Shown here one piece after another: positions 26,264 to 33,766 of a stretch of 64,000 bases of DNA. The position numbers were made by a program, and so were the translations under genes. Under the pieces are notes generated by a model. It had not been told where the DNA came from, did not search any database, and saw nothing but the letters and a program-made list of their open reading frames with translations. Position 1 is the stretch's first letter. Every line of letters begins with the position of its first letter. Source of the DNA: an uncultured bacterium. GTDB lineage: Bacteria > Actinomycetota > Acidimicrobiia > Spongiisociales > UBA5794. The stretch lies in the NCBI GenBank assembly GCA_963801165.1, contig CAWDDT010000010.1, positions 224,001 through 288,000 on the forward strand, given 5' to 3'.

Positions 26264-27025
26264 TCAGTAGGTGCGGACGACCTTGATGGCGGCCTCGGCC
26301 TTCTCACCCTCGGTCTTTAGCGAGCTAGCGGCAGAGTCCATACGATGAACCGCGATCCGGCACCATTCCCCCGCGATGCCTTTGATGATGTCGGTGGCGT
26401 CCTCGGGGCCGTAGACCCAGCGGGAGTAGCTCGGTCCCATCAGCTCCAACCGAATGCCGCCCTCTGGGAACTCCTCGCCGGCCTCGGCAAATGCATACGG
26501 GAGCATGCGATGAGCCAGCCAGGCGACGTGACGGATGCGTGATGTGTCGGCGGTCGGGTCGTCTTCTTCATCGTAGGTGAGCCGCCCCTCCATTGCGTCT
26601 TTGATGTCCAGACCGTGCGCCCAGGTCTCCATCAGACGCAATGTGGCATAGGCGCGGGCGCTCATGTCGCCGCTGAACCAGGGGACCCGGTCGCCGCCGT
26701 CCATACGCGAGAGCGCATCGACGACGTCGGCGCGGCTGTTGCGCCACCATTCGATCACCTGCTGGTAGCGCATCTTGCGACCCTCTTTGACCCCCCGCGC
26801 GGTCCACTCGTCAATGTCGTCCTTGTTCACACGAGAAACGACCTTTTTCCCGTCGGCAAGCACCTCGGCGGCGAAGCGTTCGGAGTAGGCGAGGTGGCTC
26901 ACCGTGTCCTTGATGCTCCAGCCGGGCGCAGAAGTCGGCAGATTCCACTGCCGCTCGTTGATCCGTTGCAGGAACTGGTCGAGGGATTGTTGCTCAGCTA
27001 CGAGGTCAGAGAGTATCTCACGCAT
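26264..27025 (-). CDS. Mycothiol-dependent maleylpyruvate isomerase/DinB-like metal-binding protein (TIGR03084-like)
   Basis: PGWSIKDTVSHL, RLMETWAHGLD. Confidence 0.8.
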   Translation of the reverse strand: MREILSDLVAEQQSLDQFLQRINERQWNLPTSAPGWSIKDTVSHLAYSERFAAEVLADGKKVVSRVNKDDIDEWTARGVKEGRKMRYQQVIEWWRNSRADVVDALSRMDGGDRVPWFSGDMSARAYATLRLMETWAHGLDIKDAMEGRLTYDEEDDPTADTSRIRHVAWLAHRMLPYAFAEAGEEFPEGGIRLELMGPSYSRWVYGPEDATDIIKGIAGEWCRIAVHRMDSAASSLKTEGEKAEAAIKVVRTY

Positions 27026-27049: not shown

Positions 27050-28117
27050 CTATGCGGGTGAATCCTCCGCGGCGGCATTGAGCTGATCGACCATCAATCG
27101 GAGCTTTCCGAGGTGACGTCGATCGAAGTGGAGACGGATCCTCGGCAGGTCGACGTGGTCGTCGGTGCGGATCTCGGCGGGGGTTGCGGCGATCTTTTCG
27201 ATCCTGCCTTTTACGAGGATGTCGCCGAACTCGTCGTTGAGACGCTCGATCAAGGCGACCGACGGCTCATGCTTGAGACGGAGGACCAGCTTTCCGTCCA
27301 CATAGCGTTGCGAGTGGTAGTTGTTGTAGAAGCGTCTGATCTCGTCGGCGGCCTCTTCAGCGTTGTTGGTGTAGGTGAACAGGCTCAGGTCGTCCGGGGC
27401 GATCATGCCCTGATCTCGCAGCGTCTCGACGAAGTCGAACCACTCTTTCCAGTACCCGGTTCCCTCGGCCTCCATCAACACGATCGGATGCATGTCCGAC
27501 TTCCCGGTTTGGGTGAGCGTCAGCAGCTCGAACGTCTCGTCCTGGGTGCCAAACCCACCTGGAAACACGGCAAACGCGTCGGATTCCTTGACGAAGACGA
27601 GTTTTCTGGTGAAGAAGTACTTGAAGTTGATGAGCCGGCTCTCGTGTACGTACGGGTTGGCGTCGGCTTCGAAGGGGAGCCGGATATTGACCCCGAATCC
27701 GTAGTCACTGCCGGCGCCGCGATTGCCGGCCTCCATGATCCCGGGGCCGGCTCCGGTGATGACCATCCACTGGTAGCCGTCCGCCATCAGGTTGGCGAAC
27801 TCTCCCGCCAGCTGGTAGTTGGGGCTACCGGGAGCGGTACGAGCCGAGCCGTAGACGGTCACCTTCGGTGTCTCCGTGTAACGGGAGAACACCATGAATG
27901 AGTAGCGCAGCTCCTTGAGCGCGCTATTGACGATCTTGAGATCTCCGCGGTCGGTGTCGTCGCGGTGCATCTTGATGATCGAGACGATCATCTCGCGAAT
28001 GAGATCATCGTCGTGGTCGTGGCCGGCGTGGCCGGCGACCGCGTCGCTGACGAGGGCGGCCAGCTGATCGTCCAGTTCTTTGTTACCCAGGTGATAGTTC
28101 CGCATCAGGCTCCGCAT
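27050..28117 (-). CDS. LOG family nucleotide monophosphate nucleosidase (long form)
   Basis: GSART, TGAGPGIMEAGN, YFFTRK, PGGFGTQDE. Confidence 0.9.
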   Translation of the reverse strand: MRSLMRNYHLGNKELDDQLAALVSDAVAGHAGHDHDDDLIREMIVSIIKMHRDDTDRGDLKIVNSALKELRYSFMVFSRYTETPKVTVYGSARTAPGSPNYQLAGEFANLMADGYQWMVITGAGPGIMEAGNRGAGSDYGFGVNIRLPFEADANPYVHESRLINFKYFFTRKLVFVKESDAFAVFPGGFGTQDETFELLTLTQTGKSDMHPIVLMEAEGTGYWKEWFDFVETLRDQGMIAPDDLSLFTYTNNAEEAADEIRRFYNNYHSQRYVDGKLVLRLKHEPSVALIERLNDEFGDILVKGRIEKIAATPAEIRTDDHVDLPRIRLHFDRRHLGKLRLMVDQLNAAAEDSPA

Positions 28118-28844: not shown

Positions 28845-29504
28845 GTGATCCTCGCGGACAAGTGCTTGATCCTCCACATGCCCAAGACAGGCGGTGTGTT
28901 CATCCGCATGCTTCTCGAGAAGCACTACGGGGACGCCGTGCAGCTCGCAACGGGGAAGGGGTTCGACGATCCGAGCGCTCCGTGGGCCCAGCACCATTCG
29001 ATCGACGACGTCCCGGCGGAGTTCCGCAGCCTCCCCGCGTTTGGGTTCGTCCGGAACCCGTGGGATTGGTATGTCTCGTGGTTCCACTTCTTCATGTCCT
29101 ATCCGCACCGGCCCCCGCACTTTGTCACCGTCTCGCACGACAAGACCCTCGACTTCGCCGGCTTCATGACCAGCCTGTACAGCTATCCCGAGGACTCGCC
29201 CGAGTACCTGTACAACAGCTTCTCCGCCGAGTATTACCGGATCTTCGGTTGCAACGAGGCCGTACCCCGTAACCCGGTCATCGAGATGGGGCGCTACGAG
29301 ACAGTGCACGACGATCTGCACGCGTTCTTGGCCCGCGTCGGAGTCGATCGGGAATGCCTCGACGATATCGAGGGGTTCCGCCGGATGAACCCGAGCCCGC
29401 ACCGCCATTACTCGACCTATTACACCGACGAGGTTGTCGACCAGGTCTACCGCCACAACCGCGCCGTGATCGACGAGTTCGGGTATAGGTTCGATCCGGC
29501 GTAG
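28845..29504 (+). CDS. Sulfotransferase family 2-like protein
   Basis: 5'-PSB HMPKTGG, 3'-PB FVRNPWDWYVSW, GRYE, FGY.F C-terminus. Confidence 0.8.
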   Translation: MILADKCLILHMPKTGGVFIRMLLEKHYGDAVQLATGKGFDDPSAPWAQHHSIDDVPAEFRSLPAFGFVRNPWDWYVSWFHFFMSYPHRPPHFVTVSHDKTLDFAGFMTSLYSYPEDSPEYLYNSFSAEYYRIFGCNEAVPRNPVIEMGRYETVHDDLHAFLARVGVDRECLDDIEGFRRMNPSPHRHYSTYYTDEVVDQVYRHNRAVIDEFGYRFDPA

Positions 29505-29571: not shown

Positions 29572-30057
29572 CTAATCGCGGTAGTTGATGTACTGGAGGG
29601 GGAGGCGGAAGTCCAGGTCGCGGAGCAGTTGGATGACCTCCTGGAGGTCGTCCCGCTTCTTGCCCTGCACCCGCAACTGGTCGGCCTGGACCTGGACCTG
29701 CACCTTCAACTTCGAGTCGCGAATGAGTTTCGACAACTCCTTGGCGGCGTCCTGTGGAATGCCCTGGCTCAGGGTGAAGAGTGTCTGTGATCTGCCACCC
29801 GCGGCCGGTTTGATCTCTCCACCTGCGATGGATTTGAGCGACACCTTGCGTTTGACGAGACGGCCCTTGAGGACGTCGATAGCGGCCTCCAACCTGCTGT
29901 CGGCGTTGGATTCGAGCGAGATGCCCTCGTCGGTCAGCCCGACCTTGGTGTCGGTGCCCTTGAAGTCGTAGCGGTTGGTGATCTCGCGTACCGCCTGGTC
30001 GACCGCGTTGCGGACTTCCTGCATGTCTACCTGGGAAACGATGTCGAATGAAGGCAT
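29572..30057 (-). CDS. yajQ: YajQ family nucleotide/c-di-GMP-binding protein
   Basis: MPSFDIVS, RYDFKG, GKKRDDLQ, NYRD. Confidence 0.95.
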   Translation of the reverse strand: MPSFDIVSQVDMQEVRNAVDQAVREITNRYDFKGTDTKVGLTDEGISLESNADSRLEAAIDVLKGRLVKRKVSLKSIAGGEIKPAAGGRSQTLFTLSQGIPQDAAKELSKLIRDSKLKVQVQVQADQLRVQGKKRDDLQEVIQLLRDLDFRLPLQYINYRD

Positions 30058-30086: not shown

Positions 30087-31076
30087 TCACCGGTACGGAT
30101 TCTCGCCCGGGCCGCGCCGGGCCACCGCCGACCAGACGGTCTCGTAGTGGTCACGATCGAAGCGGTCGACGTGGGGGAGCACGAACTCTTCCCAGGTGCG
30201 GCGCAGCGGATCCGGGGCCGTCGCGTAGACCCGTAGGCCCGCCGGGATCCGGTCGAGCACGGTCCGCAGGCTCATCGGGGTCTCTACGCGTGTCTGGGAA
30301 TCCGTGGAGCTGAATGAGGCGTTCACCTCGACGGCCAGCTTGGCGATGGGCTCCGAGAACACCGGCTTCAGGCCGCTATGGCGGCGATGGAGCATGCTCA
30401 CCAACTCCTCCTCGGCGGGGAAGTCCTTCTCCCAGATGATCCAGCGATCGGCGAAGGCCTTGTTCAGCGTCTGGGTGCCTGCGTAGTCGCGGAGATCGGT
30501 CGGGTTGAGCGTCCCGAACACACGGACGTCGTGGCGAAGCCGCACCATCTCGCCAGTCGGTAGCTCCAGGGCTTGATGACGGTCGAGCAGACCGTGCAAA
30601 GCGAACAGGGTCTCGGCACCGGCAGCGTTTAGCTCCGACAGGTTGATCAAGGCCGGACCGCGCAGCGCTCTTGTTATGTCGCCATCTTCCCACCGGCTTT
30701 CGGTTCCGCCCTTGCCGTCGCCGTAGAGCTTCACCGATCCGATCAACGTGATGTCACGAACCTCACCCGTCAAGGGGATCCGGTAATGCGGCATACCGAG
30801 TGTCGCGGCGAACTGCTCGAGATCATGATCCTTGCCGGTCCCCATGTGGCCACGCAAGGCGAGGTGCAGCGGAGAGTCCTTGAAGTGGTTGCGCCGCACC
30901 TCCTCCACCTGGGCGAGGCGATACAGCATCCCGAGATCCACGTAATACGGATCCGGATCGGGGATGTGCTCGATCCGCAGGTCGTGGTCCGGCATGTCGG
31001 CCGGGATCTCGGTTTTCTCTAGCTCGATGGGCGGGCCTTCCCCTGCAGGATCGTCGAAAGTCACCATCTCAGGCAT
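30087..31076 (-). CDS. MoxR/CbbQ-NirQ-like AAA+ ATPase with atypical Walker motifs
   Basis: LRGHMGTGKD, W.DG, INLSELN, TLNP, YAGT..LNKAFADRW, SLR. Confidence 0.85.
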   Translation of the reverse strand: MPEMVTFDDPAGEGPPIELEKTEIPADMPDHDLRIEHIPDPDPYYVDLGMLYRLAQVEEVRRNHFKDSPLHLALRGHMGTGKDHDLEQFAATLGMPHYRIPLTGEVRDITLIGSVKLYGDGKGGTESRWEDGDITRALRGPALINLSELNAAGAETLFALHGLLDRHQALELPTGEMVRLRHDVRVFGTLNPTDLRDYAGTQTLNKAFADRWIIWEKDFPAEEELVSMLHRRHSGLKPVFSEPIAKLAVEVNASFSSTDSQTRVETPMSLRTVLDRIPAGLRVYATAPDPLRRTWEEFVLPHVDRFDRDHYETVWSAVARRGPGENPYR

Positions 31077-33291
31077 TGGTGATGCTCCTTTGTTTGCTCA
31101 GATATTCGGAAGAGGAATGTGCCCACCACGTCTCGCCGCCGGCGGCAGCGATGGTGCGGAGCAAGCTCGAGCGGACACCGTCGATCATCGCTCTGGTGAG
31201 CTCCGCCGGCCACTCTACGACCTGGTGGCGTTGGTACGCCGCGGTCACAGTGTCGTCTCCGATGCCGATGCCCAGCACCGTGGTGCCGTTCCTCTCGGCG
31301 GCGTCCACGGATTCGGCAAGGGCTCGGACCGTGCCCCGCGTCATACCGTCGGCGAGGACGACGAGGATGCGGGTCGATACGTGCCGGGCGGCGAGCCGCT
31401 GCGTCGCATAGGTCACGTTGAACTCGTCGACGTTGGCTGCTTTGTCGAACATCGACACCGGCGGAGTGTTTTCCGGGTCTCTGCGTGCCGCATGCCCTGC
31501 TTCGCGGGGCGCAGCCGCCATGTAGAAGAGACCGGCCATCACGTCTTCGTGCTGGCGCCACCGGTTGTCGAACGGTTTGACCAGATAGTGGTTGACGGTG
31601 CGGGAGAGCCGGTCGGCCGAGCCACCATGGCTGCGACGCAACCCACCGATGGCGCTGTGTCTCCGGCTGGTGAAGGTTCGCTCGGTGTCGTCGCCGGTGG
31701 CGGGGAAGGAGCGGTTGAACACGGCGACTTCGAAGTCGATCTGGAGCTCATGGCAAAGCGCGGCGAGTGACCACGCACCGAGAGTCGCGGCGGCCAGGGC
31801 CCACGGGGCTTTGCGCGCGGTACCCACCCGGAGCGGTTGCAGCATCGACGCCGACCCGTCGACGAGCAGGCTGACGGCATAGCTGCGTCGTGTCGGCAGA
31901 TCGCGCCGCTCGAACATACGCTCGTACAAACCTGCACCGAGCAGCAGCGCCGAATACGGCGAGAGATCACCTGCGTCGAAACCGGAGCGGAGCCCCCGCC
32001 GCTGGTTGGCCAGGAACAGCGGATACAGCTCCCCGGCTACCCGGCGTTGCTCCACACCCCATTGTTTGGCTGCGGCGTCGAGACGCTCCCTGCCTTCTTT
32101 GGCGAATTTGCGGAAGTGGTCGGGAAACGGGCCGACCACGAGCTTGCCGGTCTGTCCCGTTGGCAAATAGATGGAAGGGGCCTGCGAGACACGGACGAGC
32201 TGCTCGGTGGCGGGATCTCCGGCCTGGTCGGCGTCGCCCGCCTTGCCGTGTTCGGCGGAGACGGATTGGGCGGCCGCCCACGATTGCTCGTATGACTCGA
32301 TGTCTCGCAGTGGTGGCGTGACGATTCGTACCGCGTCAACCGAATCACTGATCGCAGCGCTGTCGTCCTCGCCTTTGCCGGTTCGGACGTGCTTGGCGTC
32401 CGCCTTGGTGACGATGTGGGCGAGGCCGTGGATGCGTGCCACCTCGAGAAGCTGTAGCGCCAGCCCACCAACGGTCCACGGGTCGTCGGCGGCGGCGACG
32501 TCGTCTATGAAAGGCTGGGCGTCGTCGAGAGCCATCGCCACGTGTGCCGGTAGCTGTCGTTGCAGCTTGTCTTTTGTGGTGTAGCCCCCGACGAGAAGGA
32601 AGCAAGCGAGCGCGTACTGTCCGAGGGGACGAGCCTGTTCCATACCCCCCGGCGTAGCAGCCAGATAGAGGTCGGACAGCACCGAGCGCACGCCGCCGAA
32701 CCCGTCGAGGAGGACACGTTCCTGTCGGGCATCTTCGAGCGAGAAGAACAAGGCCTCGGCAGCTGGACCTCCGATCTCGCTTATCGCATCAAGCAGACTC
32801 ACCGGCTGTTCGTCGAGGGCCGGGACCGATCCGGGGATGGGGCTCTCTGCCTTGTCGAGATCGTCGTCGTCCTCGAACAGCATGGGTGCCCGCTTCGGGA
32901 GAGGCATGGGTAGACCCTCGGGTTCCTCGGTCGTGGTCCTGTTCTCCCGGTGGGCGAGCCAGGCTCGGGGGATCGGACGCTTCTCGTCGAAGTCGGAGGC
33001 CAGAAGGTGGACCACCTCGTGTAGCGCCGACGTGAGTGCCACCTCGGCCGGCGTCACCGGGGCGCTGCGGGCATAGGCTGCCTGGAATACGCCGGGGTCG
33101 ATGACGATCTCGTCCTCGCTGCCGGAAGCCTGCGAGCCGAGCCGGACAATCAGGTCCTCCTTGCCGGCGATGGTCCTGGCGAACCGGGTTATGGCCGGGG
33201 CGACCCGCTGATAGCGCGCCACGACGGCCTCGATCACCCTCTCTTCGGGGGGAAGCACCTCATTCAGGACTGACTGATCTCGACCGCGCAT
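31069..33291 (-). CDS. CobT/NorD-like protein: N-terminal HExxH domain plus C-terminal VWA (MIDAS)
   Basis: ALHEVVH, LEDARQE, LVDGSASM, VLADG, GIGIG; overlaps the ATPase start. Confidence 0.82.
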   Translation of the reverse strand: MRGRDQSVLNEVLPPEERVIEAVVARYQRVAPAITRFARTIAGKEDLIVRLGSQASGSEDEIVIDPGVFQAAYARSAPVTPAEVALTSALHEVVHLLASDFDEKRPIPRAWLAHRENRTTTEEPEGLPMPLPKRAPMLFEDDDDLDKAESPIPGSVPALDEQPVSLLDAISEIGGPAAEALFFSLEDARQERVLLDGFGGVRSVLSDLYLAATPGGMEQARPLGQYALACFLLVGGYTTKDKLQRQLPAHVAMALDDAQPFIDDVAAADDPWTVGGLALQLLEVARIHGLAHIVTKADAKHVRTGKGEDDSAAISDSVDAVRIVTPPLRDIESYEQSWAAAQSVSAEHGKAGDADQAGDPATEQLVRVSQAPSIYLPTGQTGKLVVGPFPDHFRKFAKEGRERLDAAAKQWGVEQRRVAGELYPLFLANQRRGLRSGFDAGDLSPYSALLLGAGLYERMFERRDLPTRRSYAVSLLVDGSASMLQPLRVGTARKAPWALAAATLGAWSLAALCHELQIDFEVAVFNRSFPATGDDTERTFTSRRHSAIGGLRRSHGGSADRLSRTVNHYLVKPFDNRWRQHEDVMAGLFYMAAAPREAGHAARRDPENTPPVSMFDKAANVDEFNVTYATQRLAARHVSTRILVVLADGMTRGTVRALAESVDAAERNGTTVLGIGIGDDTVTAAYQRHQVVEWPAELTRAMIDGVRSSLLRTIAAAGGETWWAHSSSEYLSKQRSITNA

Positions 33292-33346
33292 GACTAATGA
33301 TTTTCTCACACGCGTCAAGTCCGGAGGCGCGGTCTATCGTGGCTGG

Positions 33347-33766
33347 ATGGACGATCTGTCGATACCCGGGGGCCCGACCATCCCGGCGGGCGAGTTGACG
33401 TGGCGTTTCGACACGTCGGGAGGCCCCGGAGGCCAGCATTCCAACAAGAGCTCCACACGTGTCGAGCTGCTGTTCGACGTTACGACGTCCGTGGCACTCG
33501 ACGATGCGATGAAGACTCGGATTCTGCGGCAGAAGGGCGTCGAGCTGGGGGTGATCAGGATTCGGGTGTCCGAGTCGCGCTCGCAGTGGAAGAACCGTCA
33601 GCTCGCCCGGCAGCGTCTCGCCGAGTTCCTCTCCCGGGCGCTGGCGCCACCACCGCGGCGGCGGAAGCTCACCGTGCCGGGTCGGGCGGCGCGGGAACGT
33701 CGCCTGGCAAAGAAGCGGGATCGATCCGAGACCAAGCGCCTCCGCAGACCACCCGAGCCGGAGTGA
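33347..33766 (+). CDS. arfB: Alternative ribosome-rescue peptidyl-tRNA hydrolase ArfB
   Basis: SGGPGGQH.NK, RSQWKNR, basic C-terminal tail. Confidence 0.92.
   Translation: MDDLSIPGGPTIPAGELTWRFDTSGGPGGQHSNKSSTRVELLFDVTTSVALDDAMKTRILRQKGVELGVIRIRVSESRSQWKNRQLARQRLAEFLSRALAPPPRRRKLTVPGRAARERRLAKKRDRSETKRLRRPPEPE

Follow-up and report, generated by a model that had tools for sequence, protein, structure and literature searches.

Can an AAA+ ATPase keep working as a motor after the two residues that hold its catalytic magnesium have traded places? The question is raised by a gene in a 64,000-nucleotide stretch (hereafter, the window) of contig CAWDDT010000010.1, positions 224,001 to 288,000, from assembly GCA_963801165.1 of an uncultured bacterium of the order Spongiisociales (Actinomycetota, Acidimicrobiia). 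According to Kozlova et al. (2022, PMC9599734), the hydroxyl of the Ser/Thr that follows the P-loop lysine (position K+1) coordinates Mg2+ directly and forms a hydrogen bond with the Walker B Asp. Based on a survey of 3136 catalytic sites, these authors describe the two as the only strictly conserved proton-handling residues and build a universal catalytic scheme on the Ser/Thr-Asp hydrogen bond; the main text of that paper names two kinds of exception, nucleotide monophosphate kinases, in which K+1 is Gly, and sites at which the Walker B Asp is replaced by Glu. In the ATPase described here, Asp is found at K+1 and Ser at the Walker B position, in two bacterial orders. [quoted passage not shown]

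An AAA_5 ATPase with exchanged Walker residues

The first-pass annotation, made from the sequence alone, had proposed a MoxR-type AAA+ ATPase with reciprocally swapped Walker A and Walker B residues, and the two motifs, GHMGTGKD and LINLSE, are found at exactly the coordinates it gave (Table 1). The Walker A signature GxxGxGK[ST] is satisfied at G76, G79, G81 and K82 (codon aag, 30831-30833), and its final position is occupied by D83 (gat, 30828-30830). In the Walker B signature hhhhDE, the Asp is replaced by S147 (tcg, 30636-30638) and one of the hydrophobic positions by the polar N145, at which the outgroup proteins introduced below carry Ile, Leu or Val, and the catalytic Glu is retained as E148 (gag, 30633-30635). 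In phmmer alignments to the AAA domains of midasin, GTGKD is aligned with G.GKT/S and LINLSELNAA with IVLDELNLA. It is from these printed alignments that D83 is taken as the equivalent of the K+1 Ser/Thr and S147 as that of the Walker B Asp, and the alignments to CobS and NorQ likewise place D83 at the Mg-binding Ser/Thr and S147 at the Walker B Asp.

The remaining catalytic residues of AAA+ ATPases can all be assigned by alignment, namely, a sensor 1 Asn (N191), a candidate Arg finger acting in trans (R211) and a sensor 2 Arg (R271), as the first-pass annotation had proposed for its TLNP, AFADR and SLR motifs. E148, N150, N191 and R211 are invariant in all rows of a 50-row alignment that includes the outgroups, G76, G79, G81 and K82 are likewise unchanged, and R271 is present in all rows checked. 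The corresponding positions printed for CobS are N182, R206 and R267 (bioRxiv 10.64898/2026.10.09.757910).

Assignment of the protein to the MoxR type proved loose. The Pfam family AAA_5 (PF07728) is matched with an E-value of 2.1e-11 and 44.4 bits, against a cut-off of 22, over nearly its full length (residues 71-211 on positions 1-138 of 139), whereas AAA_3 (PF07726), the MoxR family, remains below threshold (16.8 bits against 27). The score against the NCBIfam CobS equivalog, TIGR01650, is far below its cut-off (49.3 versus 558.55 bits), and a search of the whole genome with this model recovered the same ATPase gene only (48.6 bits). No match to PF00158 (Sigma54_activat) was detected in the ATPase at E-values up to 0.01. 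Among all PDB chains, phmmer ranked the midasin AAA domains first (E 5.5e-28), followed by NorQ, CobS and CbbQ, and a profile built from the 50-row alignment matched midasin (4.4e-178) and the full length of CobS (9e-53), as well as CbbQ and NorQ.

The AlphaFold2 model computed from the same alignment (mean predicted local distance difference test score, pLDDT, 89.9; predicted template modelling score, pTM, 0.87) places a strand at residues 71-75, a helix at 82-93 and a strand at 142-147, where the P-loop and the Walker B strand are expected. The model also contains both beta-hairpins of the MoxR/chelatase/midasin class, a helix-2 insert (strands 113-119 and 125-131), which is nearly invariant in sequence over residues 113-131, and a pre-sensor-1 hairpin (strands 169-171 and 177-179), within a NorQ/CbbQ-like predicted fold. 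The best Foldseek matches are CbbQ2 (6l1q_A, E 6.6e-16) and NorQ (9qh4-9qh9), with template modelling scores normalized to the target (TMt) of 0.82-0.84. Thus, judging from profiles and the predicted structure, the ATPase is of the CobS/NorQ/midasin-like AAA_5 type.

Conservation and distribution of the exchange

The exchange is a fixed property of a large group of proteins, some of which bear the source name 'Acidimicrobiia bacterium'. Among the best 120 of 1599 database matches (77-93% identity), Walker A reads GHMGTGKD in 119 and GHRGTGKD in the remaining one, and none of the 122 aligned homologues departs from K82, D83, S147 or E148, with N145 conserved in 121. The canonical GKT and DE, which the first-pass annotation expected of close homologues in the case of a strain-specific change or a sequence error, are thus encountered in none of the 122. 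When 401 genomes were sampled across the phylum, all seven that belong to the window's order, its own among them, proved to carry the gene (70-100% identity), and it was not found in the other orders of that sample, save for one NorQ-like match at 32%. Within a 301-genome sample of the order, a tally that counts five unpublished genomes, it is carried by 284 genomes, spanning 97 of 98 genera and 12 families, and by 210 of the 212 high-quality genomes. All 28 further loci returned from the order combine GHMGTGKD with xxNLSE.

A search of the class with the upstream partner protein (see below) extended this distribution to a second order, represented by the family f88, whose members have genomes of ~1 Mb: the partner gene was detected in 58 of 65 f88 genomes (~30% identity), and there were no matches in the families searched outside the window's own order and f88. 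In each of the six f88 loci fetched (L068-L073), the ATPase gene follows the partner gene directly and its product is 55-59% identical to that of the window, retaining M78, K82, D83, H84, N145, S147, E148, N191, R211, S269 and R271. The guanine-cytosine (GC) content of these genomes is 30-34% compared to 64% in the window.

Taken together, the motifs are identical in all 41 genomes read directly (7 + 28 + 6), even though the underlying codons vary synonymously, between GAT and GAC for D83 and among TCC, TCG, TCT, TCA and AGC for S147. Furthermore, a contig from an independent run covers the gene completely and differs from it at 19 positions; none of the differences listed (17 further ones lie outside the list) falls in the D83 or S147 codons. 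A sequencing or assembly error, or a mutation confined to one strain, is accordingly hardly credible as an explanation of the exchange.

Nor is the gene decaying, in line with the inference of the first-pass annotation. Comparison with seven orthologues from the same order yielded Nei-Gojobori ratios of nonsynonymous to synonymous substitution rates (dN/dS) of 0.05-0.12, a figure that is rough because dS is near saturation, and by this measure the ATPase is under strong purifying selection, with its other catalytic residues kept, unlike the degenerate midasin-type domains described below that have lost the Glu. Because the partner-ATPase pair is retained in genomes of only ~1 Mb, a housekeeping role is suggested.

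The conservation pattern also bears on the possibility that catalysis has been lost altogether and the protein persists as a pseudo-ATPase, serving its VWA partner as a structural ring or adaptor. Inactive AAA domains are indeed common in midasin and dynein. However, a dead ring offers no reason for K82, E148, N191, R211 and R271 to have stayed unchanged in both orders, whose GC contents differ by about 30 points, or for the ATPase to be better conserved than the protein it would merely hold: identity between the orders is 55-59% for the ATPase versus 27% for the partner, and within the window's order 70-78% versus 49-62%. A mixed ring, activated by a canonical second copy, finds no counterpart in the window's genome either, where the ATPase query has a single match and no such copy was seen; the five other P-loop AAA loci read in this genome belong to different families and carry GKT and DE. 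We therefore regard a dead ring as improbable.

A single origin of the swapped clade

To place the exchange in the wider family, relatives outside the clade were collected from a library of representatives at 50% identity. Among the best 150 of 3195 matches, the family is represented by one full-length cluster and fragments; after these come midasins, together with two bacterial proteins of 42% and 39% identity. These two proteins, 20 relatives of the first and two genome matches constitute a set of 24 outgroup proteins, all of which carry GK[TS] at Walker A, with Walker B reading DE in 17 and EE in seven. A broader view was obtained with a hidden Markov model of the ATPase core, searched against 155 proteins (P0136-P0290), which gave 1036 domain matches, 434 of them spanning both motifs. 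Neither Asp nor Glu follows the lysine in any of these 434 AAA_5 domains, and Ser or Thr occupies the Walker B Asp position in six. Five of the six have Asn in place of the Glu and, by this sequence criterion, are degenerate. Intermediates, that is, GKD combined with DE or GKT combined with SE, were found neither in the 24 outgroups nor in the 434 domains, nor did the search of the class with the partner, without matches beyond the window's own order and f88, bring any to light; all of these are samples rather than exhaustive collections.

In a maximum-likelihood tree of 10 swapped and 20 canonical rows of the 50-row alignment, the swapped proteins are separated by a branch with maximal support (Shimodaira-Hasegawa-like approximate likelihood ratio test, SH-aLRT, 100), and the stem is long (3.83 changes per column), followed by inner branches of 0.04-0.23. 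In this phylogeny, both substitutions are fixed on one branch. The swapped clade is therefore, at the sequence level, a distinct AAA+ subfamily, given that all 24 of its nearest relatives are canonical at K+1, in agreement with the first-pass annotation, which had further raised the question whether GKD and SE co-vary. The two are fixed together in 122 of 122 homologues, through a single evolutionary event with no intermediate seen in the samples above. Fixation of both changes on one branch is consistent with coupling between them.

Other residues fixed specifically in the clade cluster around the ATP site together with the exchanged pair, namely, M78, H84, D85 and N145. A second, reciprocal-looking clade-specific change is located in the segment after strand 2 (residues 107-110), which reads EVRDIT compared to STTDDI: in place of R107, 16 of 20 outgroups have Thr, and in place of T110, 14 have Asp and six have Glu.

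Several observations concern the relatives themselves. The outgroup branch with Walker B EE (L025, L026, P0234 and P0273-P0276) lacks the sensor 2 Arg in the aligned rows (STGTL) and has RRW at the Arg-finger motif, and may thus represent a differently modified ATP site within the wider family. P0146, the nearest canonical relative (381 amino acids), has a Cys-rich N-terminus (CWNC...C...C) preceding the CobS-like core, which could be a zinc-ribbon fusion, and matches Pfam CbbQ_C. A phage origin of the ATPase was considered and rejected: 35 phage records, annotated as CobS, 'porphyrin biosynthesis' or ATPase, match at only 24-32%, and represent relatives rather than a source.

A VWA-MIDAS partner encoded upstream

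The partner gene lies directly upstream of the ATPase gene and on the same strand in all 40 loci compared (6/6, 28/28 and 6/6). In the window, its open reading frame extends from a TTG codon, but the true start is probably M10 (ATG at 33291) because the orthologues begin there and M10 is nearly invariant. The stop of the partner gene and the start of the ATPase gene overlap (Table 1), and GGAG sits upstream of the ATPase ATG, an arrangement likely to reflect translational coupling.

The partner is devoid of significant matches to Pfam, NCBIfam and PADLOC models, the best being VWA at an E-value of 0.022, and its homologues appear as 'hypothetical protein' in every named record. The AlphaFold2 model (pLDDT 70, pTM 0.49) is confident in the helical core of the N-terminal domain and in a predicted VWA domain (residues 478-725). 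For residues 411-720, VIA-align retrieved the VWA domain of NorD from the NorQ-NorD complex (9qh8_G; Z 17.4, 218 aligned residues, root-mean-square deviation 4.4), followed by the MIDAS domain of Rea1/MDN1 (Z 14.3-14.6), and Foldseek recovered NorD at 2.6e-07, with VWA matches filling both fold lists. Weaker leads point to CobT (PDB profile, 0.044; Atlas CobT_C clusters, 0.98; PHROGs CobT families). The MIDAS residues DxSxS and D657 are invariant in 32 aligned partner rows, the former reading DGSGS in the second order and DVSPS in an outgroup partner. The ATPase thus adjoins a VWA protein with a DxSxS...D MIDAS, as expected of a two-component AAA+/VWA remodeller.

The N-terminal domain, which has no Pfam match, carries an HExxH motif followed by E195, R198, Q199 and E200 (LEDARQE), all invariant in the 32 rows, so that an invariant Glu (E195 or E200) lies downstream of the motif. 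The latter reads HEAIH in the second order, and the outgroup partner has HELGH with EDARVE. A single Atlas cluster named 'Peptidase (Fragment)' is no more than a lead towards a candidate zincin-like metallopeptidase domain. The outgroup partner in question is encoded next to a canonical ATPase (locus L025) and shows the same layout throughout (HELGH, EDARVE, DVSPS, TDG), with a Pfam CobT_C match at 2.7e-06; the AAA+/VWA machine is therefore older than the swap.

Two functional assignments of the pair were rejected. A cobaltochelatase motor is ruled out by the absence of CobN (PF02514) from the window's genome (98.19% complete; 5 of 14 reference genomes gave matches in the control search) and by the CobS equivalog score far under its cut-off. 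Involvement in anti-phage defence finds no backing in PADLOC, to which neither the ATPase nor the partner has a match at E-values up to 0.1.

The chelatase-like appearance of the pair gives rise to another explanation of the exchange, namely, changed cofactor chemistry: the environment formed by D83-H84-D85, N145 and S147 would select Mn, Co, Fe or Ca instead of Mg2+, a different nucleotide or another phosphoryl acceptor, and nucleotide turnover might be coupled to metal handling in a CobS/CobT-like pair. The clustering of clade-specific residues around the site (M78, D83, H84, D85, N145 and S147), the invariant HExxH that the partner possesses besides its MIDAS, and the relationship to CobST and NorQD, which are metal-insertion motors, are all compatible with this proposal. 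Yet it is drawn purely from sequence, the side chains at K+2 and K+3 usually face away from the metal, and the P-loop, with G76, G79, G81 and K82 unchanged, still looks built for a triphosphate. With neither CobN nor any other obvious metal-accepting client in the genome, we consider such a change of cofactor doubtful.

How an exchanged Walker pair could support hydrolysis

In the reading that we favour, an active motor with a re-wired Mg2+ site, the carboxylate of the Walker B strand has been relocated to D83, which would probably bind Mg2+ directly, by analogy with the Glu of sigma-54 activators, and the K+1 hydroxyl has been relocated to S147, which would probably hydrogen-bond D83 or a Mg-bound water. 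Such a swap would preserve one carboxylate, one hydroxyl, the charge and the summed side-chain length. Hydrolysis would proceed as usual through E148, N191, the R211 finger of the neighbouring subunit and R271, and the VWA finger of the partner, placed in the pore of a spiral hexamer, would be turned by sequential hydrolysis, as described for NorQD (PMC13036017) and CobST (bioRxiv 10.64898/2026.10.09.757910).

There is precedent for an acid at K+1. The sigma-54 activator PspF has a GxxxxGKE Walker A, in which, according to the authors, E43 takes over the function of the Thr normally present (PMC3419264), and CbrB has GESGTGKE (PMC8871633). In PspF, the E43D variant has a Vmax of 22.3 per min compared to 39.5 for the wild type, with Km unchanged, whereas E43A is reduced to 1.37 and D107A, which removes the Walker B Asp, to 0.23 (PMC3419264). 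Because E43D is active, hydrolysis by an AAA+ protein can be sustained with Asp at K+1. The likely order of events would be a change from Thr to Asp first, giving a sigma-54-like working state, followed by loss of a Walker B Asp that had become redundant; a route through GKD with DE would keep activity, whereas one through GKT with SE probably would not.

Several points speak against this scenario. Both changes map to one branch, with no intermediate seen in the 24 outgroups, the 434 domains or the tree. The sigma-54 precedent covers only half of the change, since PspF has, besides its acid at K+1, a Walker B Asp that it cannot do without, the D107A variant being nearly dead (PMC3419264). From the standpoint of Kozlova et al. 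(PMC9599734), the swapped site might hydrolyse poorly. Finally, M78, H84, D85 and N145 are also specific to the clade, and the re-wiring may therefore go beyond a two-residue swap. Compensation between the two substitutions would accordingly be an interpretation of one event assisted by chemical reasoning.

The same considerations lend some weight to the possibility that the protein is a nucleotide-binding switch or a very slow ATPase, owing either to weakened catalysis, for example if the proton trap of Walker B were missing, or to slow release of Mg-ADP. The ring would then be a long-lived, ATP-state clamp or timer for the VWA partner rather than a fast motor. According to Kozlova et al. (PMC9599734), activated catalysis is lost once either the Ser/Thr at K+1 or the Asp of Walker B is replaced. 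In PspF D107A, the rate falls from 39.5 to 0.23 per min (PMC3419264). Moreover, an inner-sphere carboxylate should grip the metal more tightly, and motors of the MoxR class are slow in any case, with a reported rate of 10-18 per min per complex for NorQD (PMC13036017). However, PspF E43D retains about half of the wild-type activity (PMC3419264), invariance of E148, N191, R211 and R271 is expected if hydrolysis matters, and those domains in the 434-domain sample that appear to bind ATP only have lost the Glu. On balance, we find a switch unlikely.

Under the favoured reading, that of an active re-wired motor, the broadest form of our conclusion is that a bacterial lineage has reciprocally exchanged the proton-handling pair regarded as universal in P-loop NTPases and yet keeps a working, apparently indispensable motor, even in genomes of ~1 Mb; we advance this as a tentative proposal, with odds somewhat short of even. 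If it is true and ATP is hydrolysed, catalysis would need no hydroxyl on the Mg2+ with a buried carboxylate of Walker B behind it, and an inner-sphere carboxylate supported by a hydroxyl would suffice, possibly with a metal preference altered by the D83-H84-D85/N145/S147 environment. The family would then amount to a natural test of the common mechanism that has been proposed, and of which active-site residues motor ATPases really need. The swapped proteins and their revertants would form a set for testing whether the pair functions as a unit of charge and length, whether the proton-relay model is valid and where the sigma-54 activators belong. The pair would also represent a CobS/CobT-like machine, so far uncharacterized, in which the partner has a metalloprotease-like domain and a chelatase client is lacking; the locus flags a widespread, unnamed AAA+/VWA machine.

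Gene neighbourhood

The features of the locus are compiled in Table 1. The gene directly downstream of the ATPase encodes a DUF520 (YajQ-like) protein. Such a gene occurs at a distance of up to 1.5 kb from that of the ATPase in 20 of 28 further loci, albeit in either orientation, and for this reason it is a frequent neighbour but not clearly a member of the same operon. Genes for a long LOG-like protein and a DinB/MDMPI_N protein come after the pair in five of six relatives, with the start of the LOG gene ~45 nucleotides or less from the ATPase stop in three of these five, and a DinB-like gene is found near the pair in all six loci of the second order; a functional link of the two genes with the ATPase pair may exist. 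Within the window's order, identity is 54-66% for the LOG-like and 47-56% for the DinB-like protein, lower in both cases than the 70-78% of the ATPase. The gene for a small RF-1 domain protein, which resembles the peptidyl-tRNA hydrolase ArfB, is divergent from the partner gene, and this neighbourhood is not conserved in the six relatives checked. Finally, the interval from the LOG gene to the ATPase region holds, on the opposite strand, an open reading frame for a protein without Pfam matches, and a homologue of it is present in one of the 28 loci.

Table 1. Features of the ATPase-partner locus (positions within the window).
Feature	Position	Strand	Basis
AAA_5 (CobS/NorQ/midasin-like) AAA+ ATPase gene	30087..31076	-	Open reading frame of 329 amino acids, Pfam AAA_5, AlphaFold2 model, Foldseek, PDB profile
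Walker A GHMGTGKD, residues 76-83	30828..30851	-	Open reading frame and phmmer alignment
Segment after strand 2, residues 107-110	30747..30758	-	Clade-specific change
Walker B LINLSE, residues 143-148	30633..30650	-	Open reading frame and phmmer alignment
Sensor 1 Asn N191 (TLNP)	30504..30506	-	Invariant in 50/50 rows including outgroups, and in the second order; parallels CobS N182
Candidate Arg finger R211 (AFADRW)	30444..30446	-	Invariant in 50/50 rows, and in the second order; parallels CobS R206
Sensor 2 Arg R271 (SLR)	30264..30266	-	Retained within the clade and in the second order; parallels CobS R267
Partner gene, VWA-MIDAS protein with N-terminal HExxH domain	31069..33318	-	Open reading frame, 749 amino acids from TTG at 33318
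8-nucleotide overlap ATGCCTGA, partner stop/ATPase start	31069..31076	-	Open reading frame coordinates
MIDAS DxSxS of partner (D487, S489, S491)	31846..31860	-	Invariant in 32/32 rows
Further MIDAS Asp of partner (D657)	31348-31350	-	Invariant in 32 rows
HExxH of partner N-terminal domain (H100, E101, H104)	33007..33021	-	Invariant in 32/32 rows
DUF520 (YajQ-like) gene	29572..30057	-	Pfam E 2.2e-60
219-amino-acid open reading frame	28845..29504	+	
LOG-like gene	27050..28117	-	Pfam Lysine_decarbox 9e-28 and SLOG cluster4
DinB/MDMPI_N gene	26264..27025	-	
RF-1 domain protein (ArfB-like) gene	33290..33766	+	Pfam 1.2e-14

Comparison with known systems

Among characterized proteins, the ATPase resembles CobS in length, in the presence of an N-terminal extension and in the parallel positions of Walker A and B, sensor 1, the Arg finger and sensor 2, and the profile match (E 9e-53) extends over residues 33-312 of the ATPase and 28-314 of the 328 residues of CobS. 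The letters differ at the exchanged pair, for in CobS the K+1 residue is Thr and Walker B contains Asp-Glu. The VWA domain of the partner is similar to that of CobT, as indicated by the weak profile leads, whereas its N-terminal domain carries HExxH and matches no CobT N-terminal model. Furthermore, unlike in CobNST, there is no CobN in the genome and the ATPase scores far below the CobS equivalog cut-off.

In terms of fold, the closest counterparts of the ATPase are CbbQ2 (6l1q) and NorQ (9qh4-9qh9), and that of the C-terminal domain of the partner, with its DxSxS...D MIDAS, is the VWA domain of NorD (9qh8_G). However, sequence identity to NorQ and CbbQ is only 18-25%, the Walker residues are exchanged in the present ATPase, and the partner gene comes first in the locus, unlike in NorQD and CbbQO. 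The N-terminal HExxH domain of the partner was not matched to NorD in the two fold lists, both of which were filled by VWA matches.

Midasin (Rea1/MDN1) provides the best PDB sequence matches of the ATPase, and its MIDAS domain is matched by the VWA domain of the partner, with the DxSxS region aligned. By contrast, midasin is a single giant eukaryotic polypeptide with six fused AAA domains, whereas the present ATPase is a separate protein of 329 amino acids. The active domains of midasin combine GK[ST] with DE or ED and the degenerate ones lose the Glu, unlike the exchanged pair described here.

The sigma-54 activators PspF, NtrC and CbrB share with the present family an acid directly after the P-loop lysine, a family-wide trait in both cases. 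They differ in belonging to another family, in having Glu rather than Asp at K+1 and in retaining the Walker B Asp; in addition, the present locus is without a sigma-54 context and the ATPase without a PF00158 match. A reciprocal Walker exchange with loss of the Walker B Asp was not found described in the literature searched, which lay outside subscription journals and, for some papers, consisted of titles and abstracts. The fold, the family, the pairing of an AAA+ ATPase with a VWA protein and the acid at K+1 are of known kinds, and it is for the reciprocal exchange, in which the Walker B Asp is lost and which is fixed in a gene nearly universal in two bacterial orders, that this literature gave no counterpart.

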